Positions 2,255-64,000 of a stretch of 64,000 bases of DNA are shown here, piece by piece. The notes under the pieces were generated by a model. That model was not told the origin of the DNA. It saw nothing but the letters and a program-made list of their open reading frames with translations, and did no database searches. The translations under genes and the position numbers were made by a program. The DNA comes from Deltaproteobacteria bacterium (lineage in GTDB: Bacteria > Desulfobacterota_D > UBA1144 > Nemesobacterales > CSP1-2). Each line of letters starts with the position of its first letter. The stretch's first letter is position 1. The stretch is from positions 1-64,000 of the forward strand of contig JBQTHB010000002.1 of the NCBI GenBank assembly GCA_052390235.1, written 5' to 3'.

Positions 2255-2300
2255 TGTCTCTCCATAAAATTTAATCGCCCCAAGCCACTTATGCTATGAA

Positions 2301-2327
2301 TTAGACGAAAAACCAAGGCGATTTTCC
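2301..2327 (-). promoter_or_regulatory. Candidate ECF-type promoter GGAAAAT-N13-CGTCTAA upstream of the anti-sigma gene
   Basis: Minus strand reads ggaaaatcgccttggtttttcgtctaa; a similar motif lies at 7582-7609. Confidence 0.45.
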
Positions 2328-2331
2328 TCCC

Positions 2332-5106
2332 CTACCTCCAAGCCCCCAAAAGCACAAACGGCGCCCAGTAAAACGGCTGTCCGTATTTATCTGCCCTTCT
2401 GAGCATCTCGATTTGGGCTTTCCTCAGCGCTTCGTAGTCCCCTCCGGCGCGCCTCGATTTCAAATTCCCGTAGAAATCCCTCATCACCTCAAACGTCGCC
2501 CTGTCGTCCACTCTCCACAGCGTGGCAATGACCGAAGGCGCTCCAGCCGCGCTGAATGCCGCCGCTATGCTGTTTAGCTCCGCCCCAGTCGGATTGGCTT
2601 CGTTCTCGTCTATCGCCGCCTCGCAAGCCGAAAGCACTACTAGCTTTGTCCGCTCCGCAGGGGCAAGCCCGGCGATGTCTGAGAGCGTGAGGCTTCCCGA
2701 CCCCAAAGGGGCGAGCAGAATCGAAGGCTCGTCCTGAATCAGCCCGTGGGCGGCGAGATGAATAATTTCGTGTTTCCCCCAACTCTGCCGGAAGTTGTCT
2801 TTTGTAGCCTCTTTCTTAATAAACACTGAGGCGCTCGGAAACTCTCTTTTTATGGACAAAACCTCCTGCTCGGAGTACGGAAGCGCTAAATCCGGCTCTC
2901 CTAAGTCGGGATTGCCGAACGCGGCTACTGCGTCCAACTCGGCATTGCCGGAGGCAGTCGCTATCGAACCTAAATGCTCAGCCGACGCCGACACGAGATA
3001 GACGACACTCTTTGTCTCGATGAGGAATTCAATCCTCCCCCTCCCGGATTCTCTCCCAAGCGCGTGGAAAGGCAGATAGTGAAGCGAGCCGAAGGGGATA
3101 ACGGCGACCGTATCGGCATCGGCGATTTCCTCCTCCACAGGAGCTATTAAATATTTGTAGAGGAGCACTGATACCTGCGCCAATTTGGACTCGCCCTCCA
3201 ATCCGCCGGTCGGAGCGAACCGCTCATGGCGAATCAGCCATCTGAAGCGCGATACCAGAGAATTGAGTTCCGCCTTGGTTATCGAGACTTCTTTTACAGA
3301 CGCGTGCCGGTTATCAATGAGGAAAACGTAGGTCGCATTGTCCGTAACGAAGTACTCTATAAAAACAGTTTTTGGAGGGATTTTTTTCATATCCAGAGCG
3401 AGAAAACTCCCCGGATTTATGCTCAGTAGCCTGTATATTTGAGGGAATTCAGATTTAAGGCGTGCGGCGGCGGTTTTGAACTCGGCTCTGGTGTCGGCGA
3501 GGGTTTTGGCGATATTGCCAATCTTCTCAAGGCTCGGATAGTCCTTTGAGTTCTCTTTGAGAAGCTCCACGCTGAGGGACGCCTCTTTGCGCGAGAGATT
3601 ATTATACGCGCCGGCTAGCCCCCTTGTTCGTTCATCTAAACCCTCGATGCCGCCTTTGAGGAAATTGTCTCTTAGGATTTTTGATTTGCTCCTCTCGATA
3701 TACTCAAGGGCTTCGAGGGTTTTCCCGCGCCGAATTAGAAGGGATACCAGCCTCTCATAGGTTTTAATGTTCGCATCGGTAAAGAAGTTGCGGGCGTCGC
3801 TTCCTCCGGCAACGTCTTCGCGCACCGACTCCAGCGCTTCCACGGCTTCTGCGTATCCCGCCTCGGCTGAGTCCAAATCCCCGCCGCCTTCGTATGACTC
3901 GCCCTGCCCGAGGAGCGATGCCGCAAGCCACTCGCGGTCTCCGAGTTCTCGGTAAATTGCCGAGGCTTTGGCGAAACTCTCCGCCGCTCCGCTCCAGTTC
4001 TTCTCTCCCATCTGGGCGTTGCCGATGTTGCCCAGGCTACGCGCGGCGCCGTGCCTGAATCCTATCTCTTGCGATAGCGTCTGAGAGAGCCTAAAAAGGC
4101 GAGTGGCTTCCTCAGCGTCTCCTTGCGCTAATCTGACTTCGCCGATGTAGCCCAGGGCGACGGCTTGGGCGAGCTTATTGCCCGCGCGCTCGGCGACCCC
4201 AAGGGATTCATTAAAATACCGGAGAGCCTCGTCGAGCCGCCCCATGCTCCTGTGCGCTTCTCCGATGCTTGCGATGGTGAGGGCGGTTTTCCCCTCATCG
4301 CCCTGGAATTCGTTGATTTCGCGCGCCCTTTGGTAGTTGTCAATGGCTTCGGGGAGTTTGCCCTGCTCGCGATAGACGGATGCGGTGAGGGCTAGGGCGT
4401 CTGCGGTGAGAGCGGCGTCGAGGGCGGCGTTGGATGCGTCGAGGGCGCTCTTGAGGGTTTCTATGGATTTTTTATAGTTTCTCTGATTATGATAAATTGC
4501 GCCGAGGTTTATGAGGGTTTTTGCCTTCTGCGCGGGGTCGTTGATTTCATCGGCGATGGATAGGTATCCGGCGAGTAGCGCCTCTGCCTCTCTGTATCTG
4601 CCTAGGTAGGATAGCAAATTGGCGGCGTTATTTAAATTGTGCGCCTCCCCTGATTTATCGTACTCCCTCTGGATGGCGATGGCTTGGTTGAAATAGCCTA
4701 GGGCGTCTTCGTACCTGCCGATGTCCGAGTGGATTTTCCCGATATAGCTCAGGTTCGCGGCGGCGGCTTTTTCGGCCTTGATGGTTTTATTGATTTCAAG
4801 GGCTTTTTGGTAGTAATCGAGGGCGGCTCGGTTGTTATTTTTCTGGATAAGACCGAACCCTCCGGCGGCGATTATCTCGGCGATTTTCCCTTTGTCCTCT
4901 GGGGAGAGGGATTTCGCTTCGCCCTCGGATAATTTCTCCAGCGCCTCGGCGTATCTCCCTCCGTCGTAGAGCTTGACTGCCCGCCGAATATGCGCCGCAG
5001 AGGTCTGGTCTTGGATTTTAACGTCCTGCTTTGCTCCAACGGCGCACCCCAACGTCCACAGGGTTAGAGCTATTAAGAGCGCTAAGGCGCGGCGAGGTAT
5101 CTGCAT
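2332..5106 (-). CDS. Lipoprotein TPR-CHAT (caspase/separase-like) protease
   Basis: Lipobox LWTLGC, about 9-10 TPR repeats, CHAT catalytic motifs IIHLAAHG and VVLSACEA, C-terminal PFYWAPFVLLG. Confidence 0.93.
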   Translation of the reverse strand: MQIPRRALALLIALTLWTLGCAVGAKQDVKIQDQTSAAHIRRAVKLYDGGRYAEALEKLSEGEAKSLSPEDKGKIAEIIAAGGFGLIQKNNNRAALDYYQKALEINKTIKAEKAAAANLSYIGKIHSDIGRYEDALGYFNQAIAIQREYDKSGEAHNLNNAANLLSYLGRYREAEALLAGYLSIADEINDPAQKAKTLINLGAIYHNQRNYKKSIETLKSALDASNAALDAALTADALALTASVYREQGKLPEAIDNYQRAREINEFQGDEGKTALTIASIGEAHRSMGRLDEALRYFNESLGVAERAGNKLAQAVALGYIGEVRLAQGDAEEATRLFRLSQTLSQEIGFRHGAARSLGNIGNAQMGEKNWSGAAESFAKASAIYRELGDREWLAASLLGQGESYEGGGDLDSAEAGYAEAVEALESVREDVAGGSDARNFFTDANIKTYERLVSLLIRRGKTLEALEYIERSKSKILRDNFLKGGIEGLDERTRGLAGAYNNLSRKEASLSVELLKENSKDYPSLEKIGNIAKTLADTRAEFKTAAARLKSEFPQIYRLLSINPGSFLALDMKKIPPKTVFIEYFVTDNATYVFLIDNRHASVKEVSITKAELNSLVSRFRWLIRHERFAPTGGLEGESKLAQVSVLLYKYLIAPVEEEIADADTVAVIPFGSLHYLPFHALGRESGRGRIEFLIETKSVVYLVSASAEHLGSIATASGNAELDAVAAFGNPDLGEPDLALPYSEQEVLSIKREFPSASVFIKKEATKDNFRQSWGKHEIIHLAAHGLIQDEPSILLAPLGSGSLTLSDIAGLAPAERTKLVVLSACEAAIDENEANPTGAELNSIAAAFSAAGAPSVIATLWRVDDRATFEVMRDFYGNLKSRRAGGDYEALRKAQIEMLRRADKYGQPFYWAPFVLLGAWR

Positions 5107-5114
5107 CTTTTCAC

Positions 5115-7418
5115 CTACTCGAAACTCTCGGCTCTGACATCTACCGATACTATTACCACCCCTGCGGCGATGTCTATGACCGAGACGCTTCCGCTAACGG
5201 AATTCGCCGTGTAAGCCTTAGCCCCGTCCGGCGTTACGGCTACGTCTATCGGGCCCCGTCCGACCTCAAGGGTTGCGGCTACGCTCTCATCAGCGGCGTT
5301 TATCACTGACACGCTCGCGCTAAAGAAATTGGGAACTACTATCACCCCCCCGTCGGGCGTTGCGGCTAGGTCAAGGGGTCTTGAGCCTACGCGGATTCTA
5401 CTGACCACGGTGTTTGTCTCCACGCTCACTACAGACACGCTACTTCCCGTTTCGAGGAAGAAGGATTTATCGCCTGGGCTTGCGACAAAAATCCTCGATG
5501 GCGTGATTTCGATGAATCCGGGCCCTGGTCCCACGCCCTCTACCGTGGCAGTAACCTCGTCCGTCGCCGCGTCAATTACAGAGAGCGAGTTGCTCAGGAA
5601 ATTGGCGGTATAAACCCTGGTTCCATCCCCGCTTATAGCCAAATCAAGGGGGCGCAGTCCCACGGTTATCGTGGCTTCCACTGTGTTTGTCGAGGCGGCG
5701 ATTACCGAAACCGTGTTGTCGGGGACGGCGTTTGTGCCGAGATTCGACACATAGATTTTCCCCCCGTCCGGGGTGATTGCGGCGCGTATCGGGCGAATTC
5801 CGACCGGGATGACGGCTATGACAGCATCCGTAGCCACATCAATTGCCAAAACGCTGTTGCTTGAGAAATTAACACAGTACAGAGTCCCCCCGTCGGGTGA
5901 GATGGCCAAATCCACCGGACGAATTCCGACTGGGATGACGGCAGAGACCTCGTCCGTAGCCACGTCGATTACCGAAATTGTGTTCTCCGCTTGGTTCGCA
6001 GCGTAAATTTTTGCCCCATCGGGAGTTGCGGCGAGGCTTACCGGGCGCTCTCCCACGGGGATTTCGGCAACTAGGTTGTCAGTGGCTGAATCTATGACGG
6101 ATACGGTGTTTATGCCGGAGTTGGCTGTATAGACTTTCGCTCCGTCGGGGGTTAGGGCGATGTTAGCCGGGCCCGGGCCTCGTATCGGAATCCTGCCAAC
6201 GACCCGGTCAACCGAGGTGTCTATTACCGAGACCGTATCGGGGCTTGCCACATACACTCGTAAACTATCGGGGGAGATAAAAACCGCCACGGGCCTATCT
6301 TCGACGGCGATAGTTTCTGTAACCTGATTAGCGGCCGTTGCCACTACGGATACCACTCCCGGATTGGAACTGCCGGAATTCACAGCGTAGAGCTTGGCGC
6401 TATCCCCAGTAATGACAATTCCGAGCGGAGCAAGCCCTACATTTATTGTGGCGGCGAGGGCGTTAGCGGATACGTCAATGACCGAAAGCGTGCTTCCGGG
6501 CTGAGCGCTACTTCCCGAATTCGCCACGTAAGCGCTTGCGCCGTCGGGCGATATGGCGATGTTGATTGGGCCCACGCCTACAGGAATCATGCCGATGGTC
6601 TGGTTGTTTATGCCGGATATTACTGATACAGAGTTGCCGAGGGCGTTTGCTACGAATACTTTTTCGCCGTCAGGGGTTACGGCTACAGCCGCGGGCAAAA
6701 GCCCTACGACCGCAAAGGCAATGAGCGTGTCCGCGCGCCCGTCAATAATTGATACCGTGGTTCCGGGGGTTGCCTGGGCGCCCGAATTGACCGCATAGAC
6801 CTTTGCGCCGTCCGGGGAGATGGCTACATTTGTGGGCCCTTCGCCAACCGGTATAACGGCTATCACCTGGTTTATTGGCGTGCCGATAACTGACACGGAG
6901 TTGCCGACAGTATTTGCCACATAAGCCTTAGAACCGTCGGGCGATATGGCGATTCCGGCGGGACTCAACCCTACGACTATAGTGGCGACGACCCTATCCG
7001 AGGCGGTATCAATCACGGATACGGTTCTGCCGGGGTTTTGAGGGGAGCCTGAATTAACTACAAAGACTCTCCCCCCGTCAGGGGTTATCGCGATGTTAGA
7101 GGGTCCCCCCTCGACATCTAAAATAGCGGATACCTCGTTGGTCAGGGTATTGACCACCGAGACGCTATTATTCAGCCTGTCGGTGGCGTAGAATTTTGAG
7201 CCGTCTCTCGTGATGGCTACGGCTTGAATACTGGCGTCGAACCGCAGAATCAGAGCGGGCCCGGGAATAATTATAGGAGCAATTATCGGAAGCACATTGG
7301 AAGCGACGCCTAGCAATCCGAGCAGCGTAGAGACGGCGCAGGAGCAGAGGGCGAGGCACAGGACGCCGAATCTCTTCGGAGTCAACCACGACGCCGGCTC
7401 GGATGAGGATTTATTCAT
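5115..7418 (-). CDS. Exported YVTN/YncE-type beta-propeller repeat protein (about 16 blades)
   Basis: 16 repeats of GxxP..IAI(T/S)PDGxKxYVxN..NxVSVID; N-terminal hydrophobic segment with a possible lipobox LCSC. Confidence 0.9.
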   Translation of the reverse strand: MNKSSSEPASWLTPKRFGVLCLALCSCAVSTLLGLLGVASNVLPIIAPIIIPGPALILRFDASIQAVAITRDGSKFYATDRLNNSVSVVNTLTNEVSAILDVEGGPSNIAITPDGGRVFVVNSGSPQNPGRTVSVIDTASDRVVATIVVGLSPAGIAISPDGSKAYVANTVGNSVSVIGTPINQVIAVIPVGEGPTNVAISPDGAKVYAVNSGAQATPGTTVSIIDGRADTLIAFAVVGLLPAAVAVTPDGEKVFVANALGNSVSVISGINNQTIGMIPVGVGPINIAISPDGASAYVANSGSSAQPGSTLSVIDVSANALAATINVGLAPLGIVITGDSAKLYAVNSGSSNPGVVSVVATAANQVTETIAVEDRPVAVFISPDSLRVYVASPDTVSVIDTSVDRVVGRIPIRGPGPANIALTPDGAKVYTANSGINTVSVIDSATDNLVAEIPVGERPVSLAATPDGAKIYAANQAENTISVIDVATDEVSAVIPVGIRPVDLAISPDGGTLYCVNFSSNSVLAIDVATDAVIAVIPVGIRPIRAAITPDGGKIYVSNLGTNAVPDNTVSVIAASTNTVEATITVGLRPLDLAISGDGTRVYTANFLSNSLSVIDAATDEVTATVEGVGPGPGFIEITPSRIFVASPGDKSFFLETGSSVSVVSVETNTVVSRIRVGSRPLDLAATPDGGVIVVPNFFSASVSVINAADESVAATLEVGRGPIDVAVTPDGAKAYTANSVSGSVSVIDIAAGVVIVSVDVRAESFE

Positions 7419-7581
7419 GAGGGCGCGACCTTCTGCGGTGAACTATCATAGCAGCACTCCTATCATAACACTATCCGCGCTCTAGGGATATGCCCCGGGC
7501 CGGATAACCCCCGCTCGCAATCGCCCGGGGACGGATTCCTGCCGAGGCATCTACTACGAAACTAATATGCGCAGACTACAG

Positions 7582-7609
7582 TTAGACGAAAAGTCCCGTA
7601 AAGTTTGCC
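7582..7609 (-). promoter_or_regulatory. Candidate ECF-type promoter GGCAAAC-N14-CGTCTAA upstream of the propeller-CHAT operon
   Basis: Minus strand reads ggcaaactttacgggacttttcgtctaa; shares TTTTCGTCTAA with 2301-2311. Confidence 0.45.
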
Positions 7610-7721
7610 GGGTCTGCCTACCGCGCCCGGATTTTAGCTTTACACGGGCGGCTCGCGGGGCTAACCTTAGAGGTAAATCCCTGCGCTTTGGAGAATTCTG
7701 GGGAGAAATTAAGGAGAAATA

Positions 7722-9422
7722 ATGCGAGCTAAAATTCTATCTGCCTTACTAATGTCCATCCTGATTCCCGCTCACCTGGCGCTCTCTGACCCGCTGACGA
7801 GCGATAGAGGCGATATGCCGGTTATCGCCGCCATGGAAGCCGAACTCCTGCGCTCATCAAAGAAGCTCAGGCTCGAAGGATATGAAAATCCCTATTTTAT
7901 CAGCTATCAAATCAAAGATAACTCCTACTACTCGGTCAAAGGGAAATTCGGCGCCATCGTAACCTCCGACGGCAACCGCACGAGGCGGCTTTTCGTTGAT
8001 GTCCGCGTGGGCGACTATGAATTTGATAACTCGATAATGGGAAAATCGGGCGGCAGAGTTCCTTTTTTCGACGCCTCCTACGCCCCTCTCGGCAACGATG
8101 ATGAGGCTATAAGGACGGCTCTTTGGCAGGTAACCGACTACGCCTATAAACAGGCTCTGACCCAATACCTCAATAAGAAGGCGAGTTTCGTAGAGAAAGC
8201 CAAAAAAGCCGCCGCCGCGAGCTTCTCCGCCGAGCTTCCCTATGTTCAATTCGACAATGAGCTGAACCTCGTGTTCGATGCCGAGGACTGGGAGGCGAGA
8301 ATCCGCGAAATCTCGGCGGTTTTCAAAGACTACGGCGATTTAATTGACGCAAGTGTCGGCATCACGGCCCAAAAAGAGACCACTTACTTCGTCAACACCG
8401 AAGGGGCGCGCCAAATCCGGGACGAGATTCTCTACTCCATAGACTCCCAAGTGTTGACCAGGGCTGAGGACGGAAGCCCGATAAAGAACTATAGAAACCT
8501 CTACTATCTATCCCCCCAGGACGTGCCTTCGGTTGAAGCGATAAAATCTAAAGTGCGGCGGCTCGTGGAAGAGACCCTTAGCATCAGGCAGGCTGAGGTC
8601 ATATCCCCGGTGAATGTTCCCGCGATACTTGAACCTGAGGCGGCGGGAGTGGTATTTCACGAAGCCGTGGGACACAGGCTCGAAGGGGAGCGACAGATTG
8701 ACGACAAAGAGGGGCAGACCTTTAAAGAGCGCGTCGGGGAGATAATAATTCCGCCCTTTCTCTCGATAGTTGACGACCCCACGATGAGGAGATTCAACGA
8801 AACCGGTCTTATGGGGTACTACTCCTTCGACGACCAGGGGATTCCGGGGCAGAGAACTATTCTCGTTGAAAATGGGGTGCTGAGGAATTTTCTACTCTCC
8901 AGAACGCCGATAGAGGGCTTTAATAAATCCAACGGACACGGCAGGGCGTCAGTCGGGCGCGCGCCTATGGCGAGGATGAGCAATTTGACCATAACATCCA
9001 ATAGGCAGCGCGCGAAGGGGAAACTCAAGGAACTGCTGATTGAGGAAATAAAGCGGCAGAAAAAACCATTTGGACTCATAATCAAGCGTATGCAAGGGGG
9101 CGAAACCAACACCTCTTCGTACGATTTTCAAGCCTTCAAAGCCACCCCTCTTCTAGTTTATAAGGTTGACCCCAAGACCGGAGAGGAGATACTCGTAAGA
9201 GGGGTAGAGGTGGTTGGCACTCCGCTGGTAACTATAAATAAAATCATCGCAACCGGCGACGACTATTCGATTTTCAACGGCTTCTGCGGGGCGGAATCCG
9301 GTTATGTGCCGGTGTCAACCGTAGCCCCCAGCGTGCTGATTTCGGAAATCGAACTCCAGAGAATCTCGGACGGAAAAGAGAAGCTCCCCATACTTGCCCC
9401 GCCCTACCTCGGCGCGGAGTGA
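7722..9422 (+). CDS. tldD: TldD/PmbA family metalloprotease with signal peptide
   Basis: FHEAVGH (HExxxH), FDDQG, NGHGRA, RMSNL, GFCGAESG; AAGGAG RBS. Confidence 0.85.
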   Translation: MRAKILSALLMSILIPAHLALSDPLTSDRGDMPVIAAMEAELLRSSKKLRLEGYENPYFISYQIKDNSYYSVKGKFGAIVTSDGNRTRRLFVDVRVGDYEFDNSIMGKSGGRVPFFDASYAPLGNDDEAIRTALWQVTDYAYKQALTQYLNKKASFVEKAKKAAAASFSAELPYVQFDNELNLVFDAEDWEARIREISAVFKDYGDLIDASVGITAQKETTYFVNTEGARQIRDEILYSIDSQVLTRAEDGSPIKNYRNLYYLSPQDVPSVEAIKSKVRRLVEETLSIRQAEVISPVNVPAILEPEAAGVVFHEAVGHRLEGERQIDDKEGQTFKERVGEIIIPPFLSIVDDPTMRRFNETGLMGYYSFDDQGIPGQRTILVENGVLRNFLLSRTPIEGFNKSNGHGRASVGRAPMARMSNLTITSNRQRAKGKLKELLIEEIKRQKKPFGLIIKRMQGGETNTSSYDFQAFKATPLLVYKVDPKTGEEILVRGVEVVGTPLVTINKIIATGDDYSIFNGFCGAESGYVPVSTVAPSVLISEIELQRISDGKEKLPILAPPYLGAE

Positions 9423-9476
9423 TGGGTCATTAATATATACGCGCTCGGCAGATGCGGACGGCTGAGTGGAATCTTA

Positions 9477-10694
9477 TTACGGAGTAACGTAGTTAGTTCT
9501 GAGAAATAAATACGCCGCCCAGCCGTTAATCAGCGCCGAGATGGCAAAAAGAGCGATTTCGCTCGCCGTGAGTCTCTTCGGACTGCTCTCCAGTATTATG
9601 AGATACATCCACGGCAGAAGCACCATTGCATAGCGGTAGGACACCTGCCAGCCCCCCGGATTTCCGTGTATCCACAGTATAAATGTGAGAATTAGAACCG
9701 CCGCCCATGCCGTAGCTTTTAAGGCTCTATCCGCCCCGCCCCGCCGAAATAACAGAAACAGCGCCGGGCTTGCCATGAAAATAGAGCCGCCGAACCCAGT
9801 AGGCACGTAATAGGGATATTCGGCAAGGCGTTTCCACCCCTGAAAGAGCATCTCTTTGGCGTTAAGCGGTATCGCCGATAGAGAAAATATGCCGCCGCTG
9901 TACCAAGGCTCGCTCAGCACGCCGGGGATTCTCGCGTAGCCGAAATCGAATGGGGACTCAAAACGGGCGTAATTATAGGCGAGAGTCGCAGCGCCTAGGG
10001 CAAATGGCAGGGCGGAAAATGCGGCAATCCGCCCGAGCTGTTTTGGAATATCTACGACAGAGCGGACGCGCCCCCGGAGCAATAGATAAAAGAAAATAGG
10101 GAATAGGGCTATAATCTCCGTGCGATTGCCGAATCCGACGGCGAAAAAAAATCCTGCCAAGAAGGGTTTTTGGCGCACAAGCAGAAAATACAGCGCCCCC
10201 GCCTCTCCGAGTACCGCGAACCCCAGCGCAATATGCCATGCGCCGCCAAATGCGAGATTCGCCCACGTCCAAGTGCCAAGTAGCGGAAAAAGCGATAAAA
10301 CGGCGCGTTTTGAGGGGGTCAATTCATATCTGCCAGCGAGCGCGAAAAAGAACGCCGCCGATAAAGCCGCTACCGTTGCCACAATAGCCGCGGCGGGAAA
10401 CCCGTTAATAACCCCTATCATCTGTAGAGCGGCGGCAGGGATAACGCTCAGCACAGCTCCGAGTGGAAAAACCGAATAATATAATCCGTTGTGCGGCACC
10501 ATCTCGCTCAGCCACGACGGCGGCTGTTCGGCGACTCCTAAGTTTCCGTTGAGCAGGGCGAGGGCAATACGAGAGGTGTAGTCATAAAAATGCCCGGGGT
10601 TCGGATTGGTAAAGTAATATATAATCCCAGCGGCGGCGGCAATTGCGAGCGGCGGAAGCGATTTTGTTATTTTACACTTTCTTGGATTTGGCAT
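9477..10694 (-). CDS. Polytopic membrane protein, GT-C glycosyltransferase-like
   Basis: About 10 TM segments, YYSVFPLG loop, YNYARFESPFDFGY and GGWQVSYRY motifs. Start uncertain (10694 chosen; ORF open to 10766). Confidence 0.6.
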   Translation of the reverse strand: MPNPRKCKITKSLPPLAIAAAAGIIYYFTNPNPGHFYDYTSRIALALLNGNLGVAEQPPSWLSEMVPHNGLYYSVFPLGAVLSVIPAAALQMIGVINGFPAAAIVATVAALSAAFFFALAGRYELTPSKRAVLSLFPLLGTWTWANLAFGGAWHIALGFAVLGEAGALYFLLVRQKPFLAGFFFAVGFGNRTEIIALFPIFFYLLLRGRVRSVVDIPKQLGRIAAFSALPFALGAATLAYNYARFESPFDFGYARIPGVLSEPWYSGGIFSLSAIPLNAKEMLFQGWKRLAEYPYYVPTGFGGSIFMASPALFLLFRRGGADRALKATAWAAVLILTFILWIHGNPGGWQVSYRYAMVLLPWMYLIILESSPKRLTASEIALFAISALINGWAAYLFLRTNYVTP

Positions 10695-23507: not shown

Positions 23508-23690
23508 CGAGAAATCTCAAATAAGATTCCTCTCTGGGCGTTCGGAATGACAAGAGTTAATGCGCTGGCAATGGCAGGAGCGAGGTTTTCGGAGTGGGGC
23601 AATTCACGAGGGAGAGAGGGGGACGCTTCACACCGAGAGGGATACTCGTATGTCATTCTCACGAAAGTGGGAATCCAGAGCTCGACTCCA
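23490..23690. repeat. Mosaic palindromic repeat cluster 1
   Basis: TGTCATTTCGAGCGATAGCGAGAAATC, AGATTCCTCTC..TTCGGAATGACA, TGTCATTCTCACGAAAGTGGGAATCC. Confidence 0.9.
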
Positions 23691-26532: not shown

Positions 26533-27624
26533 ATGGAAGCCGCCAGTACAATATCGAAGTTGCCGGATAAATCGCAGTTTCGCCTTGGCTATATGCCGTT
26601 TTTGGACGGTATGCGCGGGTTCGGGATACTGCTCTTTATGGCTTGGCACGCCGACGCCCCTTACCTGCGGGGGAGCTTTGTGTATCTCAATGTTTTCTTT
26701 GTGCTGAGCGGATTTCTCATTACATCGCTTTTAATCAAGGAATGGGATAGGCACGGCGAGATTAGTCTGGGGAAGTTCTACGCTCGAAGGGCGCTTCGAC
26801 TTCTGCCCGCGCTCGTGGTGATGCTTACGCTCTACGTTGCGGCGAGTTTTTTTTTGCTCTCGAACCCATTTGACCATTTCGTGGACGCGCTCCTCGTCTT
26901 GTTCTACGCCTCGAACTGGACTCGCGCCTTCGGGCTAGACAGGCCATCGCTCCTGGGACACGCATGGTCTCTTTCGATAGAGGAGCAGTTTTATCTGCTC
27001 TGGCCCGTGATTTTGATATTGATGCTCCGCTTTATGCCCTCCCCGCGCCGAATGCTCGCCTTCGCCGTGTTGGGAATTGTCCTCATCACGGCTTACAGAA
27101 TTGATATGGCTGCCGCCGGAGCCACTATAGAGCGGCTCTACAACGGATTCGACACAAGGGGGGATTCCCTGCTTCTGGGATGCGCGTTGGGCATAGTTCT
27201 ATCCTCAAACCTCATTAGGGCGAGCGCGCCGACGCTTCAAATTACCCGTATTTTGTCGTTCATCGGGGCGGCGGGGATGCTCGCAATATTTCAGTTTGCC
27301 GACTGGCGGGAGCTGTCAACCTATTACTATATGCTCTCGCTCTGTGATATTTTCTCCACGCTGATAATTCTCGATATGGTCTTATCGCCCTCGCCGGGGA
27401 TTGTGAAGAGGCTATTTGAAGCCCCATTGTTTGTCTGGACGGGGAAAATTTCCTACGGGCTATATATCTGGCACTTCCCGATATTCCGCGCCCTGCAGAT
27501 TAAGCTCGGCTGGGATTGGTATTTGGTGCTTGCCGTCGGCGGCGCTATGACCTTCGCCGTAGCTTCGGCATCGTATTACCTGCTGGAGCGGCCGTTCCTT
27601 CGCATGAAGACCCGATTCGGCTAA
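26533..27624 (+). CDS. Acyltransferase family 3 (OafA-like O-acetyltransferase), TM domain only
   Basis: LDGMRG, FFVLSGFLI, FYARRALRLLP, HAWSLSIEEQFY, GKISYGLYIWH. Confidence 0.93.
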   Translation: MEAASTISKLPDKSQFRLGYMPFLDGMRGFGILLFMAWHADAPYLRGSFVYLNVFFVLSGFLITSLLIKEWDRHGEISLGKFYARRALRLLPALVVMLTLYVAASFFLLSNPFDHFVDALLVLFYASNWTRAFGLDRPSLLGHAWSLSIEEQFYLLWPVILILMLRFMPSPRRMLAFAVLGIVLITAYRIDMAAAGATIERLYNGFDTRGDSLLLGCALGIVLSSNLIRASAPTLQITRILSFIGAAGMLAIFQFADWRELSTYYYMLSLCDIFSTLIILDMVLSPSPGIVKRLFEAPLFVWTGKISYGLYIWHFPIFRALQIKLGWDWYLVLAVGGAMTFAVASASYYLLERPFLRMKTRFG

Positions 27625-57465: not shown

Positions 57466-58461
57466 GTGTCTCAGCATCGCCGAGTAGCGCTTAAATCGAG
57501 CGGAGAAAACCTAGCCGCCGCCGTCCGTTCCGCGCTTATGGAGTCAGGGATTCTCTCTAGCATCAGCCGGACTTCGAGAGTAGCTCTGAAGCCAAATCTG
57601 ACCTATCCGTACTACAAAAAGGGGGTAACTACGTCCCCTGCGGTCATCCGCGAGACGGTCAAAATCCTGCGCGAATATACGGATTTCATCGCCATAGTTG
57701 AGTCCGACGGGGGCTACGGAGCCTGGGAAGCGCCGGAGGCGTTTCGGGGGCATAATCTGTATTCTCTGGCAGAGGAATATGGGGCAGAGGTCATAAACCT
57801 GTGCGCCGAGGGCGAGGAGCGAGAATTCATAGCTGTAAAGTCTCGTGGCTCGGAGTATCAAATCCCGCTGCCACGCCGACTTTTGAGGGAAACCGATTTG
57901 CTCATCACCATGCCCGTGCCGAAGATTCACTGCATGACGGGACTCACGCTCGGCTACAAGAATCAGTGGGGGTGCATCCCGGACAAAATGCGTCTCCGCT
58001 CTCACTTCGTCTTCAACGACGCTATTATCGCCATAAACCGCGCCCTGCGTCCGGCGGTGCTCGCAGACGGGACCTATTTTCTAGACCGAAATGGCCCGAT
58101 GGAAGGAGACCCCGTGCAGATGGATTTTATTATCGCCGCAACGGACGTCGGCTCGTTCGACAGGTACGCCTCTGAACTCATGGGCTGGAGTTGGCGCGAT
58201 GTGCCGCACCTAAGACGCGCCGTCGCCCTCGGGGATATGCCCGCAAATCTCGAGGAGATTGAATTCAACGTTCACCCGAAGCAGGCGTCGGGGCGGAAAT
58301 TCCGGCTTCAGCGCACCCCCCGAAATTATATTGCTCTGTCTGGCTTTCATAGCCGCTATCTCACGTGGTTTATGTATGAATCGTGGTTTGGCCGCGTTGT
58401 GCTTCATTCGATTTTTTACGCTATCGTGGGGAAACCCGTAAAGCCGAAGCCGGAGCAATAG
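57466..58461 (+). CDS. DUF362 domain protein (LarA N-domain-like)
   Basis: VALKPNL, TTSP, VES, PVPKIH..GLTLGYKNQWG, ADG..GPMEG, DVGSFD. Confidence 0.85.
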   Translation: MSQHRRVALKSSGENLAAAVRSALMESGILSSISRTSRVALKPNLTYPYYKKGVTTSPAVIRETVKILREYTDFIAIVESDGGYGAWEAPEAFRGHNLYSLAEEYGAEVINLCAEGEEREFIAVKSRGSEYQIPLPRRLLRETDLLITMPVPKIHCMTGLTLGYKNQWGCIPDKMRLRSHFVFNDAIIAINRALRPAVLADGTYFLDRNGPMEGDPVQMDFIIAATDVGSFDRYASELMGWSWRDVPHLRRAVALGDMPANLEEIEFNVHPKQASGRKFRLQRTPRNYIALSGFHSRYLTWFMYESWFGRVVLHSIFYAIVGKPVKPKPEQ

Positions 58462-58579
58462 GGCGAGTCCGGCGGCTGAGATGATACTGGATTCTCGCAT
58501 CAAATCTGCGTAAATTAGAGGACTTATGTCGGAGCTATGGCGGCGTCCGGCAAAATGCGCTTCGGAGGTTACAGTTCGG

Positions 58580-58819
58580 ATGAGATATTTAAAAGCGCTT
58601 TGGGAGTGGTGGAAGCCCCTAGCGAGAAAAATCGGCGATTTTCAGGCGCGGGTTATCCTCACGGTTTTTTATTTCGTATTTCTTTCTCCCTTCGCGCTTA
58701 TTGTCCGTTTTGCAACTGACCCCCTGGCGATAAAACCCAAAACGCCTCGGGGCTGGCTCCTCAGAGAAGATTCAGGCGCGCCTGAGGCTCAGAGGGCGAC
58801 GAAAATGTTTTCCCTTTAA
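58580..58819 (+). CDS. Small membrane protein, SxtJ-like
   Basis: W..LARKIG..QARVILTVFYF..PFALI.R..DPL...GW; directly precedes the carbamoyltransferase. Confidence 0.7.
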   Translation: MRYLKALWEWWKPLARKIGDFQARVILTVFYFVFLSPFALIVRFATDPLAIKPKTPRGWLLREDSGAPEAQRATKMFSL

Positions 58820-58836
58820 GGAGAGTTTCCCTACTG

Positions 58837-60612
58837 ATGAAAATACTCGGAATCTCATGCTATTTTCACGATGCTGCCGCCGCCCTGCTGGTTGACGGAC
58901 AGCTCGTTGCCGCCGCCGAAGAGGAGAGGTTCTCGCGCAAGAAGCACGACTACGAATTCCCGCAATTGGCAATTGATTTCTGCCTCAAAACGGCGGGGCT
59001 GAAACCATCCGACCTCGACTACGTGGTGTTTTTTGAAAAGCCGTTTGTTAAATTTGAACGTCTGCTCCTGTGCGCGATGCAGACCTTCCCGCGCTCCATT
59101 AAGCTGTTCCGCGAGGCTATGATAACCTGGCTTGGGGATAAGCTGTGGATAAAACACCTCCTTCAAAAAAAACTCGGCGTAGAGGAGTCTAAAATCCTCT
59201 TTTCAGAGCATCACCTCTCTCACGCCGCAAGCTCTTTTTACTGCTCCCCCTATGAAGAGGCGGCGATTCTCACCGTTGACGGCGTGGGCGAGTGGACTAC
59301 AGCCGCCATCGGTGTGGGCAGGGGCAATGAGATAAAGCTACTCAAAGAGATTCGGTTTCCGCATTCCCTTGGGCTTCTCTACAGCGCGTTTACGGCGTTT
59401 TTGGGGTTTGAGGTCAACGAGGGGGAATATAAAGTGATGGGAATGTCGCCGTTTGGCAAACCCAATTATGTGGATGAGGTGATGAAGCTCGTCCGAGTCC
59501 ATGACGACGGCGGGTTTGAACTCGATATGGACTATTTCTCGTTTCATTACTCCTCCGAAAAGACATTCAGCCGCAAATTCGAGGAACTCTTCGGCGAGCC
59601 TAGAGACCCGAAGTCCCTATTTTTCACCGGCGAGAGCGGATTTCCGGCGTATTTCGGACAGAAGCCCGTTGATTTTGACGAGCTTGCCCTGAGCAATCAG
59701 CGCTACGCCGATATTGCCGCGAGCATCCAAGCCGTAACCGAGGGGATTATGCTCAAAATGGCGCGCGAGGCTCGCCGCCTGACCGGTCTTACAGCGCTCT
59801 GCATGGCTGGAGGAGTCGCCCTAAACAGCGTTGCAAATGGGAAAATTCTCGCAGGCGGGGCATTTGACGAAATCTACATTCAGCCCGCCGCAGGAGACGG
59901 TGGGGCGGCTCTGGGCGCCGCTCTCTGGGCGTATCACTCCGTGCTGGGCAAACCCCGAAAATTCGTAATGCGCCATGCCTACTGGGGGGAGGAACACTCG
60001 GACTCTGAAATTGAGCAATTTCTCGCGGAGAATAAGATTGCTTATGAGAGGCTCGACGACGAGGGGATTATCCAAAGCGTCGCCGAGAGAATTAGCCGAG
60101 GGAAGGTCATAGGCTGGTTTCAGGGGCGATTTGAGTGGGGGCCCCGGGCCCTTGGCGCAAGGAGCATCCTCGCCGACCCGCGCCGTGCCGATATGAAGGA
60201 CATCGTCAATACGAAAATTAAATTCCGTGAGCCGTACCGCCCGTTTGCCCCTTCTGTGCTTGCTGAAAGGGCAGGGGAATTTTTTGATTTCCCTGAGCCT
60301 GCGCGCCACTTCCCAGCGCGATTCATGCTCTATGTAGTGAATGTAAAAGAGGATAAAAGGGCGCTTCTTCCCGCCATAACGCACGTTGACGGAACGGGTA
60401 GGCTTCAGACCGTGGACAAGGCGGCGTCCCCTCGATATTACCGCCTCATTGAGCGGTTCGGCGAGCTTACGGGCGTGCCAGTGGTGCTGAACACCTCGTT
60501 TAATCTGCGCGGAGAGCCGATAGTGAACACTCCGGCAGAGGCTTACAGCACATTCATGAGGAGCGAGATGGACGTGCTGGCGCTGGGGAATTATCTAGTG
60601 GAGAAGGTCTAA
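58837..60612 (+). CDS. NodU/CmcH family O-carbamoyltransferase
   Basis: ILGIS..HDAAA, EEERF.RKKH, HHLSHA, DGVGE, GGVALN, GPRALGARS, RPFAP, THVDG, NTSFN. Confidence 0.95.
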   Translation: MKILGISCYFHDAAAALLVDGQLVAAAEEERFSRKKHDYEFPQLAIDFCLKTAGLKPSDLDYVVFFEKPFVKFERLLLCAMQTFPRSIKLFREAMITWLGDKLWIKHLLQKKLGVEESKILFSEHHLSHAASSFYCSPYEEAAILTVDGVGEWTTAAIGVGRGNEIKLLKEIRFPHSLGLLYSAFTAFLGFEVNEGEYKVMGMSPFGKPNYVDEVMKLVRVHDDGGFELDMDYFSFHYSSEKTFSRKFEELFGEPRDPKSLFFTGESGFPAYFGQKPVDFDELALSNQRYADIAASIQAVTEGIMLKMAREARRLTGLTALCMAGGVALNSVANGKILAGGAFDEIYIQPAAGDGGAALGAALWAYHSVLGKPRKFVMRHAYWGEEHSDSEIEQFLAENKIAYERLDDEGIIQSVAERISRGKVIGWFQGRFEWGPRALGARSILADPRRADMKDIVNTKIKFREPYRPFAPSVLAERAGEFFDFPEPARHFPARFMLYVVNVKEDKRALLPAITHVDGTGRLQTVDKAASPRYYRLIERFGELTGVPVVLNTSFNLRGEPIVNTPAEAYSTFMRSEMDVLALGNYLVEKV

Positions 60613-60625
60613 TACAGTGGATTTC

Positions 60626-61040
60626 CCTCTTCGCCCCGTGTCATTTCGAGCAATAGCGAGAAATCTCAAATAAGATTCCTCTCTGCGTTCGGAATGACAG
60701 AGTTGAGAGAAGGGGGCGCTTAATACCGAGCGGATACTCGTATGTCATTCTCACGAAAGTAGAGAATCCAGAGCTTGACTCCGCTCCCTTCGGCGTAGTT
60801 TATAGTGAGCTTAGTCGAAGCGCTCGCCCTTTGACTCCGCTCAGGGTGAAGAGGAATTGGATTCCCGCTCAGATGGCTTGCGGGAATGACAGCGTGTTGA
60901 GGCGTTCGGAATGACACTCCCCTCTGCGTTATTTTGCCTCTTCGCCCCGTGTCATTTCGAGCAATAGCGAGAAATCTTGAATAAGATTCCTCTCTGGGCG
61001 TTCGGAATGACAAGAAGTGAGGTGTTCGGAATGACAGAGG
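60626..61040. repeat. Mosaic palindromic repeat cluster
   Basis: TGTCATTTCGAGCAATAGCGAGAAATCT at 60639 and 60950, with a full module series between. Confidence 0.92.
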
Positions 61041-61218
61041 TGAGAGAGGAGTGGCGGAAGCTCCGTCGCTATACTTTTGCTCATATTCACTGTGGGACAT
61101 ACCTTCGGAACGACGCGCGAGGTATTATCCTAGTATCTCATCGCCTGCCGCGCATCACTTACGGCGGCCTCTCTTAGCGTTTTTGCGGCTAGACGATATA
61201 CAATGGAGGTGGTTCACA

Positions 61219-61389
61219 ATGGGAAAATTAGGCTCTAGGCTTGGCATTGCCGGCGAGTTGCTGCAATTTTTCTGGGGGCGCAAGTGGTGGTGGATTACGC
61301 CGATGCTCATTCTGCTCATAGCCCTCGGCATATTGATAGCGTTTGCCCAAAGCTCTGCTGTTGCCCCGTTTATTTACACGCTGTTCTAA
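61219..61389 (+). CDS. 56-aa membrane micro-protein, DUF5989/SxtK-like
   Basis: GGAGG RBS; MGKLGSRLGIAGELLQFFWGRKWWWITP...SSAVAPFIYTLF. Confidence 0.85.
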   Translation: MGKLGSRLGIAGELLQFFWGRKWWWITPMLILLIALGILIAFAQSSAVAPFIYTLF

Positions 61390-61415
61390 GTTTCGCTGTT
61401 TGGAGGTTGCCTTCG

Positions 61416-62447
61416 ATGAAAAAAATTCTGCGTCTCCTCTTTCTCTCCGTATTCGGTCTCGGTGTAGGATTAATAATAGCGGAGTTCGCGTCGCGGCTTT
61501 TTCTCCCCGCGCCCGTGCCTTGGAAATTCCCCCTGCTCAGGTACGAGGTGGCGGCTGACTGCGGTTACCGGTTTCAGCCGAATAGAGAGGGATACCAGCT
61601 CTCAGGGCTTGCCCGTATCAACCGAGACGGCTTTCGCGGGGGCGATTGGGAGATTGAAAAACCTGCGGGCGTGAAGCGAATCCTAATTCTCGGCGACTCC
61701 ATGGCATTTGGCCCTGGGATGAACGACGACGAGACTTTCACCGCTCTGATGGAGGCGTCTCTGAACGAGGGCGCGCCCTTGGGAACTCGCTACGAGGTAA
61801 TGAATTTCAGCGTGCCGGGATACGACACGGGGCATGAAATCTGCATCCTTGAGCGATACGCTATGAAATTCAAGCCCGATGCCGTGTTTCTCAATTTCTA
61901 TCTCAACGACCTCATCTACGTGCGCGACTACGGCGTCTATCCGCAACTGTTTAAACAGGGGGAGAAGGCTTTTAACGAGTCCAATTGGAAACGTCGCGAG
62001 CTTATACGCAAAAGCCGCCTCGTCATGACAATTTGGGATTTGATGCAGGCGAGAGCCGAAACCCAGATGACCCGAATCGTGCGCGCTTACGTCGAGGAGG
62101 GAGTCGCTCCGCCGAAGGGCAATGAGGACGGCTGGCAGTTTGTCGAGGGCAAACTCGCAGAATTTAAGAAACTCGCATCCGGCAACGGATTCAAACCCGC
62201 CCTTGTGATTTTACCTCTACCGCAGGAGGTGCAGGGGGCCGGAGGGAAATCCACATATCCCGAATACCTTAACCTCAAAGCCTCAGCCGCCGGAATTGAT
62301 TTCATCGAGATGCTCCCCGCGCTCAAACAAAGCGGCCTCACATTCAATGAAATTTTAATCCCCTACGACAACCATCTTAACCGAGAAGGACACCGCATTG
62401 CGGCACAGGCTCTAGCTGAGGCGGCAGCGAGGATGCTCGGCGAGTAG
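61416..62447 (+). CDS. Membrane-anchored SGNH/GDSL family protein
   Basis: N-terminal TM, INRDGFRG, LGDSMAFG, YLND, DNHLNREGH; GGAGG RBS. Confidence 0.88.
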   Translation: MKKILRLLFLSVFGLGVGLIIAEFASRLFLPAPVPWKFPLLRYEVAADCGYRFQPNREGYQLSGLARINRDGFRGGDWEIEKPAGVKRILILGDSMAFGPGMNDDETFTALMEASLNEGAPLGTRYEVMNFSVPGYDTGHEICILERYAMKFKPDAVFLNFYLNDLIYVRDYGVYPQLFKQGEKAFNESNWKRRELIRKSRLVMTIWDLMQARAETQMTRIVRAYVEEGVAPPKGNEDGWQFVEGKLAEFKKLASGNGFKPALVILPLPQEVQGAGGKSTYPEYLNLKASAAGIDFIEMLPALKQSGLTFNEILIPYDNHLNREGHRIAAQALAEAAARMLGE

Positions 62448-62513: not shown

Positions 62514-63317
62514 ATGGACAAGATAAGCCAAAAACACGAAAAACTAATTGCCTTGATAAAACCGCTCGAGTCCGCAATCATCGCCTTTTCGGGCGGCGTT
62601 GACAGCGCGCTTGTGCTGAAAGTCGCCTTCGCCACTCTTGGGAGCAGGGCTATTGCCGCCACAGCTGACTCCCCGTCCCTGCCGAGACGAGAGCTTCGAG
62701 AGGCTCAGCGGGTTGCCGAGTCCATCGGCGCAAGGCACGTCATCATCGAGACAGGCGAGATGCAGGATGAAAATTACGCGAAGAACCCTCCTAACCGGTG
62801 CTATTTCTGCAAATCCGAGCTATATTCAAAGCTACTGAAAATCGCCGCCCGCGAGGGAATATCCCATATTCTAAACGGGACACAGTACGACGACCTCTCG
62901 GACTATCGCCCAGGGCTTCTCGCCGCATCCGAGCAAAAAATCCTCTCTCCGCTTGCCGATGCCGGACTGTCCAAATCCGAGGTAAGGGCTTTAGCCCGCC
63001 TGCTCGGTCTCGAGGTGTGGGATAAGCCCGCAAGCCCTTGCCTCTCGTCGCGGATTCCTCACGGGAGCGAGGTTACGCCTGAGAAACTCGCCGCAATTGA
63101 ATACGCCGAGGAATTCCTGCGGGGGTTCGGCATCCGAGAACTGAGAGTGCGCCACTTCGGACTCCGCGCCAGAATCGAGACGGGGAGCGAGTACTTCTCC
63201 ACAATTCGAGATAACTTCGGCGTTATCCAAGACCGCTTCAAAGCCGCCGGATTCGCCCACATTGAGCTTCGGCAGTTCAGGAGCGGCGCTCTCAATCCAG
63301 CGCGCAGGGATTCATAA
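62514..63317 (+). CDS. larE: ATP-dependent sulfur transferase LarE (nickel-pincer cofactor)
   Basis: PP-loop AFSGGVDS, NRCYFCK, DYRPG, WDKPASPCLSSRIP, LRVRH. Confidence 0.92.
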   Translation: MDKISQKHEKLIALIKPLESAIIAFSGGVDSALVLKVAFATLGSRAIAATADSPSLPRRELREAQRVAESIGARHVIIETGEMQDENYAKNPPNRCYFCKSELYSKLLKIAAREGISHILNGTQYDDLSDYRPGLLAASEQKILSPLADAGLSKSEVRALARLLGLEVWDKPASPCLSSRIPHGSEVTPEKLAAIEYAEEFLRGFGIRELRVRHFGLRARIETGSEYFSTIRDNFGVIQDRFKAAGFAHIELRQFRSGALNPARRDS

Positions 63318-63388
63318 TCCACAAAGCAGGAGGAATCCCCCTTTGCGATACTATTGAGGGGCAACCTCTCCAGCAAAACTAATAAATC

Positions 63389-64000
63389 ATGCAAAGAGAA
63401 AAAATCAGAGAAATCCTCGCCGGTGTGGAGCGCGGCGAAATTCCCGTTGACCATGCTCTAAAATCCCTTGAGAGGCTGCCTTTCGAGGACATCGCATTTG
63501 CCAATATTGACCATCACAGGGCTTTGCGCAAGGGCTTTCCCGAGGTCGTCTATTGCGAGGGCAAAACCCCAGAGCAGGCGGCGCAGATTATAGAGCGACT
63601 CTCGGAGACGGGAGACGTTCTCGCCACGCGCGCCTCGGCGGATGTTTTTCGGCTGGTTCAAACTGTAATTCCACGCGCCGAATACAGCGAAACTGCCCGT
63701 CTCATAGCCGTAAGGCAACCGGCCCAAGCAGGGGGGCGTACTCTGAAATCTGGGCTGATTCTCGTCATGAGCGCGGGAACCTCTGATATTCCCGTAGCCG
63801 AGGAAGCCGCCCTTACGGCGGAGGTCATGGGAAACCGCGTCGAACGGCTGTTCGATGTGGGAGTTGCGGGGATTCATCGCCTGTTTGCGAATAAGGCGAG
63901 AATTGACGGAGCGGCGGTGCTTGTAGTGGCTGCCGGAATGGACGGGGCGTTGCCCTCGGTTGTTTCGGGGCTAGTGTCGAAACCGGTTATTGCGGTGCCT
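63389..64000 (+). CDS. larB: Nickel-pincer cofactor biosynthesis carboxylase/hydrolase LarB (partial, runs off the window end)
   Basis: Not in the ORF track. MQREKIRE...IDHHRALRKGFPEVVYCEGKT...AGTSDIPVAEEA...DVGVAGIHRL...AGMDGALPSVVSGLV..PVIAVP. Confidence 0.93.
   Translation, partial: MQREKIREILAGVERGEIPVDHALKSLERLPFEDIAFANIDHHRALRKGFPEVVYCEGKTPEQAAQIIERLSETGDVLATRASADVFRLVQTVIPRAEYSETARLIAVRQPAQAGGRTLKSGLILVMSAGTSDIPVAEEAALTAEVMGNRVERLFDVGVAGIHRLFANKARIDGAAVLVVAAGMDGALPSVVSGLVSKPVIAVP

Follow-up and report, generated by a model that had tools for sequence, protein, structure and literature searches.

A DUF5989/SxtK microprotein with profile similarity to the acyl-shuttle helix of AlgI-like acyltransferases, and a possible tyrosine relay without an MBOAT

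Introduction

The first 64,000 nucleotides of contig JBQTHB010000002.1 from a Deltaproteobacteria bacterium (GenBank assembly GCA_052390235.1), referred to here as the window, hold a cassette of four genes that is part of a cell-surface glycan cluster. The cassette encodes J, a small SxtJ-like membrane protein; CT, a predicted O-carbamoyltransferase; K, a membrane microprotein of the DUF5989/SxtK family; and a membrane-anchored protein of the SGNH family. As judged from profile comparisons, K is related to the acyl-shuttle helix found at the C-terminus of a clade of AlgI-like membrane-bound O-acyltransferases (MBOATs), it is fused to an SGNH protein in another lineage, and no MBOAT was detected in the genome that carries it. 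These features give good architectural support to a tyrosine relay operating without an MBOAT, and we infer that its cargo would be carbamoyl groups loaded by CT.

Acyl-tyrosine shuttles that serve cell-envelope polymers have recently been demonstrated, with DltX and PatA as examples, and those known to us always involve a membrane enzyme of the MBOAT or AT3 type. PatB and DltD receive their acyl group from the acyl-tyrosine of an FXYXXF motif, and PatA and AlgI carry a peripheral helix, a last transmembrane (TM) helix and the tyrosine motif (PMC12148441, cited from excerpts, like the other articles below).

The genes sxtI, sxtJ, sxtK (165 nt) and sxtL are neighbours in cyanobacterial sxt clusters and encode an O-carbamoyltransferase, SxtJ, SxtK (~54 aa) and a GDSL lipase (PMC2679770, PMC2684587), the latter with the listed role of 'decarbamoylation' (PMC2679770). 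SxtJ and SxtK are described as acting 'with SxtI', and as uncharacterised, in reviews up to 2025 (PMC2885083, PMC12300590). Since the same CT/SxtJ/DUF5989/GDSL families stand side by side in the window, the cassette is a member of this known, named and functionally unexplained module—a relationship that an earlier reading made from the sequence alone (the sequence-only reading) had missed, and that emerges from the PF19451 match of K and from the sxt gene tables.

Organization of the cassette

The elements of the cassette are the following:

58580..58819, + strand: J, short-form SxtJ-like membrane protein of 79 aa, with a hydrophobic segment at residues 24-42 and then a charged tail with a D-P-L motif
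58837..60612, + strand: CT, predicted NodU/CmcH/SxtI-type O-carbamoyltransferase of 591 aa (PF02543, PF16861)
60613..61218, no strand: CT-K spacer of 606 nt, packed with short interspersed repeat copies (seen in the sequence)
61219..61389, + strand: K, DUF5989/SxtK microprotein of 56 aa, with a basic amphipathic N-terminus, a TM segment at residues 25-43 and an uncharged tail ending in AVAPFIYTLF
61369..61386, + strand: codons of the terminal hexapeptide of K, F51-I-Y53-T-L-F56, with the Tyr53 codon TAC at 61375..61377
61416..62447, + strand: SGNH, membrane-anchored protein of 343 aa, with an N-terminal TM segment at residues 4-22 and a domain predicted to face outward; S95 is encoded at 61698..61700, and D318 and H320 at 62367..62375

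A GGAGG lies 8-9 nt 5' of the ATG of both K and SGNH, the SGNH gene starts 27 nt after K, and J has an alternative upstream ATG at 58526 that would lengthen it to 97 aa. J, K and SGNH hold one hydrophobic segment each and CT holds none. The sequence-only reading had placed the four open reading frames (ORFs) at these positions of the + strand, and had described them as a NodU/CmcH enzyme without a signal peptide, a 79-aa membrane protein, a 56-aa TM peptide ending in FIYTLF, and a membrane-anchored SGNH protein with GDS and D-x-H motifs. All four descriptions are borne out by the hydrophobic segments just given, by the full-length PF02543 and PF16861 matches of CT, and by the motifs G93-D94-S95 and D318-N-H320 of SGNH.

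Relationship of K to the shuttle helix of MBOATs

A search limited to longer proteins retrieved an AlgI-type MBOAT of 511 aa whose last 38 residues are a DUF5989 domain (PF03062, 8e-20; PF19451, 4.6e-13), and PF03062 is combined with a C-terminal PF19451 in 14 protein clusters. A genome scan with one MBOAT-DUF5989 protein yielded 279 relatives, from which 80 loci were kept. All 76 full-length MBOATs of these loci end in Y-x-x-[F/Y], and most of them show the pattern of K, namely R-x-R-W-x-W-x-x-P, a TM segment, and P-x-[M/I]-Y-x-x-F.

The hidden Markov model (HMM) of K matches 21 of these MBOATs outright. When the K profile was compared by hhalign with the C-terminal 70 residues of 55 MBOATs, a set from which those 21 had been excluded, the alignment (Prob 97.4, E 1.1e-11) spanned 47 columns and ended at both C-termini; the comparisons of this kind ranged from Prob 97.1 to 97.4 and from E 5e-11 to 1e-11. 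The controls gave a Prob of 0.4 for reversed sequences, 1.1 for K against J and 0.3 for K against SGNH. By this homology, K corresponds to the peripheral helix, last TM helix and tyrosine motif of PatA and AlgI. A further likeness lies in the surroundings of these MBOATs, since an SGNH protein of the same broad family as that of the window is encoded within ~500 nt in 56 of the 80 loci.

The K family and its tyrosine tail

The match of K to PF19451 (DUF5989) has an E of 2e-18 and scores 66.6 bits (65.5 bits when the genome was scanned), the cut-off being 27. Among 1.84 billion cluster representatives, searched exhaustively with phmmer, 2004 are relatives at E<=1e-3. The terminal tyrosine, whose conservation the sequence-only reading had named as a check on its proposal, is kept in 146 of the best 150 of these 2004 relatives, a selection to which the tail itself contributes through the score; it is the fourth residue from the end in 138 of the 150, and 125 show an exact F-x-Y-x-x-F end. 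Among the four ends without tyrosine, one reads FISTLF and three are frameshift-like. The 76 tails encoded in the genome loci comprise 69 APFIYTLF, 5 APFIYTIF and 2 APFIYTMF, a count that is biased because the tail was among the patterns with which these loci were sought. The genome of the window has 21,012 ORFs of 30 aa or more, and K is the only product among them that ends in F[ILVM]Y..F.

On average, the N-terminal flank of K carries 2.45 K/R residues and its tail 0.02 (138 sequences), and this contrast, together with the fusions of K to MBOATs and to SGNH, fits an orientation with the N-terminus inside and the C-terminus outside. K is therefore predicted to consist of a cytoplasmic peripheral helix, one TM helix and a tail, F-I-Y-T-L-F, that faces out. 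This is the layout of DltX-like proteins, with one TM segment, the N-terminus inside and a C-terminal F-x-Y-x-x-F outside, the topology being deduced for K from the charge bias and the SGNH fusion.

Other searches with K were negative. No match to the Pfam family DltX (PF12459) was found at E<=0.01, where DUF5989 and a weak TRP hit were the sole results; the look-alikes of K in the ESM Atlas, with PF19451 excluded, gave no usable match; and a sequence search of the PDB returned chance matches to rhodopsin helices alone, at E of at least 0.067. Five apparent fusions (P0002, P0047, P0058, P0151 and P0152) were set aside as likely artefacts of gene calling or assembly, or because they stand on single short contigs. 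When viral contigs were searched with the alignment of K, three loci were recovered, in none of which K has CT, J or SGNH as a neighbour. Homologues with the full tails SAVAPFIYTLF and SVVAPFIYTLF are encoded on two phage-like contigs, at L094:6019-6171 and L095:4155-4325, respectively.

The SGNH protein

The SGNH protein matches PF13472 (Lipase_GDSL_2) at 1e-9, with 39.6 bits against a cut-off of 32.9, and weakly matches PF16822 (ALGX), with 19.2 bits against a cut-off of 26.5. Relatives encoded beside K in other loci exceed the ALGX cut-off (42.4 bits in L083, 39.9 in L072 and 39.1 in L080). In an alignment of 40 SGNH relatives, no sequence departs from G93 or S95 of the catalytic motifs, and the conservation of D318 and H320 is 90% or higher. 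The genome holds one strong member of this family.

An AlphaFold2 (AF2) model of the protein (pLDDT 87.9) has an N-terminal TM helix at residues 2-29. The closest structure is CgnD (8a2n), with a Foldseek E of 4e-10, a VIA Z of 24.0, and an rmsd of 2.8 over 242 residues at 21% identity, and the next matches are generic GDSL esterases at Z 17.1, SGNH structures as a whole ranging over Z 15-24. AlgX, AlgJ, PatB and DltD are not among the matches listed in the fold search, which does not exclude a likeness to them. The predicted complex of SGNH with K scored an ipSAE of 0.02/0.03, against a mark of 0.32, and constitutes no evidence either way.

A fusion of SGNH and K in Caldilineaceae

The strongest evidence that the K tail serves SGNH, and that K belongs functionally to J and CT, is a natural fusion protein of 526 aa. 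It comprises an N-terminal anchor, an SGNH/ALGX domain (36.9 bits against ALGX), a second TM segment, and a complete K module ending in GPFIYTLF. The fusion is kept in three genomes of the Caldilineaceae, with identities of 100, 92 and 58%, its K portion is the only DUF5989 in each of them, and each also encodes a pair of short J and CT that has no K of its own. One of these loci is contiguous (L107: J at 6851-7129, CT at 7130-8980 and SGNH~K at 9001-10578), and in the other two genomes the J-CT pair lies 0.84 and 1.4 Mb from the fusion.

The fusion protein has three hydrophobic segments. Two K/R residues precede the first of them and are followed by an acidic domain of 422 residues, six K/R lie between the second and the third, and none is found in the tail. 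These loop charges place the SGNH domain and the tyrosine tail on the same outer side of the membrane.

Conservation of the gene neighbourhood and absence of MBOATs

The neighbourhood of K was examined in 78 K-bearing loci from many phyla (79 fetched). CT, J and K occur together in 65 loci, and CT and K in another three, so that K adjoins CT in 68 of the 78. The order is variable, with CT-J-K, J-K-CT, J-CT-K, CT-K-J and K-J-CT all represented. SGNH is a frequent, not an obligatory, neighbour of this module. In the 51 loci that extend for 3 kb or more in each direction, it is present in 24 and directly adjacent in 14, and three loci that hold K as the only module gene pair it directly with SGNH (L025, L051 and L083). 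Five genomes with a triad locus devoid of SGNH were searched for one elsewhere, and four of them encode it at E<=1e-15.

Some loci show further arrangements. In three loci of Bacteroidota type (L050, L055 and L063), the order CT-K-J is directly followed by a UbiA-family prenyltransferase, which hints at a lipid-linked acceptor in this lineage. Three to four paralogous SGNH genes surround one K or one MBOAT-K in L016, L147 and L189, and such sets would be consistent with a single shuttle that supplies several transferases.

The lack of an MBOAT that the sequence-only reading had reported for the cassette extends to the whole genome (2.29 Mb, 99.8% complete), where none exceeds the cut-off and the best match reaches 16.3 bits. 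No MBOAT was found at E<=1e-10 in 81 sampled genomes of the same phylum, 23 of which carry DUF5989, a sample in which related genomes are not independent. Similarly, a Pfam scan of the 171 TM-bearing proteins in the flanks of the 78 loci, outside which fell 242 flank proteins with no predicted TM segment, detected no MBOAT and one AT3 protein. Five other K-bearing genomes do have MBOATs, which are located elsewhere and have their own tails.

The carbamoyltransferase and J

CT is assigned to the NodU/CmcH type by matches that cover both families in full: PF02543 (Carbam_trans_N, Kae1-like; 2.2e-80, profile positions 1-346 of 346) and PF16861 (Carbam_trans_C, YrdC-like; 2.8e-71, positions 1-170 of 170). 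The characterised carbamoyltransferases of the TobZ/NodU family that we know of work without partner proteins.

J matches SxtJ (PF19588) at 22.1 and 21.9 bits, below the cut-off of 24.4, over profile positions 48/50-98 of 99, and its 97-aa version gives no hit at E<=1e-4. Its assignment is supported by a core, W...W..lG..R..L..F..P..l..DPL..YW.R, shared with the J genes beside CT and K (jackhmmer, 65 of the 78 loci), and short forms of 77-92 aa in L006, L007, L011 and L012 are 45-55% identical to it. W11 and P37 are the only columns conserved at 90% or more, and no polar or catalytic residue of J is invariant. J tracks CT rather than K or SGNH: among the 80 MBOAT loci, only the two with CT have J.

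The AF2 model of J is one straight helix (residues 2-45, pLDDT >90). The C-terminal tail is very basic, which would favour a cytoplasmic position for it; the flanks carry 1.96 K/R over 15 aa and 6.45 over 30 aa, and the C-tails of long forms 8.05. A re-entrant hairpin in the J core, proposed from these basic flanks, found no backing in the straight helix of the model. Nor is J recognisable as a fragment of an MBOAT, its profile scoring a Prob of 0.5 against the MBOAT profile.

Comparison with known systems

By family, and as judged from the gene tables, the cassette has the gene content of sxtI-J-K-L. Unlike the sxt genes, it lies in a polysaccharide cluster, follows the order J-CT-K-SGNH, and encodes a short J that holds the conserved core alone.

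With the DltX-DltB-DltD, PatA-PatB and AlgI-AlgJ/X systems, it shares a single-pass F-x-Y-x-x-F element at the outer face beside a membrane-anchored protein of SGNH type, and K, like DltX, is a separate microprotein. These systems differ from the cassette in that the genome of the window and the sampled genomes of its phylum lack an MBOAT, in the presumed loader—a soluble ATP-dependent carbamoyltransferase together with J—and in the presumed cargo, which would be carbamoyl rather than acyl. In the AT3-SGNH proteins OatA and OafA, an acyl-tyrosine intermediate is also passed to an SGNH domain at the outer face (PMC12148441), but the tyrosine is part of a 10-TM AT3 domain to which SGNH is fused, whereas the AT3 gene of the window lies 32 kb away and AT3 accounts for one of the 171 flank proteins scanned in the K loci.

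The crocagin pathway is the source of CgnD, the structure that the SGNH protein matches best, and also includes a carbamoyltransferase, CgnI. Its precursor peptide ends in Ile-Tyr-Trp, and CgnD is reported to be a very slow hydrolase in vitro and a slow leader peptidase (PMC10070186). The CgnD that was crystallised was a purified, soluble protein, whereas the SGNH protein of the window is membrane-anchored. The terms CgnJ and CgnK have no occurrences in PMC10070186, and no J or K partner is named in the excerpts of that article.

Within the searched literature, whose coverage leaves out most subscription journals, we found no mention of DUF5989, no pairing of 'acyl shuttle' with 'carbamoyl', and no link of carbamoyltransferases to MBOAT/SGNH relays.

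Surroundings of the cassette

The cluster around the cassette encodes glycosyltransferases of families GT1, GT2 and GT4, FkbM methyltransferases, sugar-nucleotide enzymes, a Wzy-like protein, and Wzm/Wzt-type ABC proteins (ABC2_membrane; ABC_tran/Wzt_C). Three further features lie in the window or next to it:

26533-27624, + strand: stand-alone AT3 acyltransferase in the same glycan cluster (PF01757, 92.5 bits)
57466-58461, + strand: DUF362 protein with a hydrophobic C-terminus, directly upstream of J
1846-3567 of the stretch L085 (G000:C2:64001-76000), just downstream of the window: second CT of 573 aa, without J or K

The AT3 protein at ~26.6 kb, which the sequence-only reading does not mention, is the sole transmembrane acyltransferase identified in the genome. 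The DUF362 protein probably does not belong to the module, since a homologue occurs in just one of 78 related loci (L018). The second CT is followed in L085 by genes for GT2, a GDP-mannose dehydratase, an epimerase and Bac_transf, so that a carbamoyltransferase with partners and one without them stand side by side and offer a natural comparison. Between both carbamoyltransferase cassettes, and still within the glycan cluster (window 62514-64000 and L085:654-1841), lie genes for LarE, a LarB-like protein (AIRC) and LarC, the makers of the nickel-pincer cofactor.

A repeat with the core CGTTCGGAATGACA occurs in 11 copies in the window, against none expected, mostly between glycan genes. Four of the 11 copies, together with a duplicated stretch of ~40 nt, occupy the 606-nt spacer between CT and K (60613-61218), and further sites lie near 23539, 27731, 37013, 42188, 46955, 50362 and 57114.

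Discussion

The proposed relay

In the relay that we consider, J and the basic N-terminus of K would keep the soluble, ATP-dependent CT at the membrane, and CT would place a carbamoyl group on Tyr53 of K. The group would then be taken onto Ser95 of the outward-facing, membrane-anchored SGNH protein, which would act as a transferase and hand it on to one of the hydroxyls of the exported polysaccharide. Aryl carbamates carbamoylate the active-site serines of serine hydrolases, a chemistry of the kind that the second step would require. We hold this complete sequence—CT docked on J and K, loading of Tyr53, transfer through Ser95 to the exported glycan—to be an evenly balanced proposition. The tyrosine relay of the sequence-only reading is thus strengthened as an architecture by the shuttle homology, the SGNH fusion and the MBOAT-free setting; a covalent tyrosine carbamate with CT as its loader, the transferase role of SGNH and the acceptor are the parts of that reading that we still infer.

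Several observations weigh against this proposal. The carried group must cross the membrane, given that CT is cytoplasmic and the tyrosine of K faces outward, and neither the conservation of J nor its AF2 model makes a transmembrane conduit evident; an oligomeric ring of J and K, or a movement of the uncharged tail, are speculations about the route. The AT3 gene of the window and the second CT without partners make a simpler scheme possible, in which carbamoylation is cytoplasmic and SGNH is used separately. The conservation figures for the tail carry the sampling biases given with them, and the similarity of K to MBOATs has limits: 11 MBOATs with 'classic' F[IV]Y[FML]QF tails reached a Prob of just 17.6 against K, and the K HMM showed no significant similarity (E>100) to seven ordinary MBOATs from K-bearing genomes, which confines the homology to one MBOAT clade. 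K also occurs apart from the module, without CT in 10 of the 78 loci (some at contig ends) and, on the two phage-like contigs, in the company of structural genes and genes for small membrane proteins, where CT, J and SGNH are all missing from the vicinity.

The same holds for SGNH, which is found within 8 kb of K in 34 of the 78 loci, as judged by the family of the window, and is missing from 44; it is directly adjacent to the module in just 23, and one of the five genomes with an SGNH-less triad has no SGNH of this family at E<=1e-15. Finally, two Acidobacteriaceae metagenome-assembled genomes encode SGNH, an MBOAT, K, J and CT in one row (L185:6598-12042 and L188:6562-11892). Their MBOAT carries its own FMYRFF tail, and an acyl relay and a presumed carbamoyl relay may share one SGNH or one polymer there. 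The co-occurrence of the four genes without an MBOAT, which the sequence-only reading had named as a check, is seen for CT, J and K in 65 of the 78 loci, with no MBOAT among the scanned flank proteins; SGNH is present in a part of the loci, and an MBOAT stands beside K, J and CT in these two.

Alternative explanations

J and K might simply tether or activate CT at the inner face of the membrane, the glycan being carbamoylated in the cytoplasm as a lipid-linked or nascent chain and SGNH being an unrelated periplasmic esterase or acetyltransferase. Such a scheme agrees with the presence of both catalytic domains in CT, with its partner-free characterised relatives, with the greater constancy of the CT-J-K triad over SGNH (65 against 34 of the 78 loci), with the ABC2_membrane and ABC_tran/Wzt_C genes of the cluster, which fit an ABC-transporter pathway, and with the lack of an evident conduit. 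It is nevertheless unlikely in our view, because the most conserved part of K is its uncharged tail, on the opposite side of the membrane from CT, this tail is homologous to the acyl-tyrosine module of MBOATs, and K is fused to SGNH in genomes where J and CT have no K of their own. The relay of K and SGNH could also carry acetyl or another acyl group, loaded by a different membrane enzyme such as the AT3 protein at ~26.6 kb, with CT acting separately. The AT3 gene does belong to the same cluster, K modules serve MBOATs elsewhere, and the SGNH proteins beside those MBOATs are related to that of the window. We judge this quite improbable, as K adjoins CT in 68 of the 78 loci, AT3 being nearby in one and an MBOAT in none, J, CT and SGNH~K are contiguous in L107, and no precedent for an AT3 enzyme that loads a separate peptide was found in the excerpts of PMC12148441.

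Two further explanations concern the catalytic role of SGNH and the nature of K. SGNH might be a hydrolase that removes or edits carbamoyl or acetyl groups, the K tail regulating or anchoring it; this would agree with the decarbamoylation listed for sxtL (PMC2679770), with the esterases that make up most of its structural neighbours, and with the slow hydrolysis by CgnD, the closest of them (PMC10070186). On the other hand, related SGNH proteins beside MBOATs occupy the position of the transferase in PatA-PatB and Dlt (PMC12148441), and a hydrolase offers no reason for a fused, invariant tyrosine shuttle motif, so we consider this role improbable as well. That K is a ribosomal precursor peptide, with its tyrosine C-terminus modified by CT and cut by SGNH in a crocagin-like manner, is brought to mind by the Z of 24.0 that separates CgnD from the next match at 17.1, and by a crocagin cluster with both CgnI and a precursor ending in Ile-Tyr-Trp (PMC10070186). 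K, however, spans the membrane and has a tail that is near-invariant across many phyla, it is homologous to part of the MBOAT enzymes, it sits in glycan clusters, and the Pfam results for the window contain no oxygenase or peptide-binding partner genes, all of which make a precursor role very improbable.

Implications

Taken at its widest, the proposed relay would make DUF5989/SxtK the carrier arm of an unrecognised, MBOAT-free machine for group transfer across the membrane, in which SGNH, and not CT, performs the final O-carbamoylation outside the cytoplasm. We put this forward tentatively, at somewhat less than an even chance. If it is true, the same logic would apply to thousands of bacterial cassettes of CT, SxtJ and SxtK, and would provide a function for genes of the J, K and L types, listed as 'unknown' since 2008, as well as for a DUF family of ~2000 sequence clusters. 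The tyrosine-shuttle principle would then reach carbamate chemistry and a soluble loader, SGNH would be the actual final transferase, and a sharp question would be raised about how an activated group is moved across the membrane with just two single-helix proteins.

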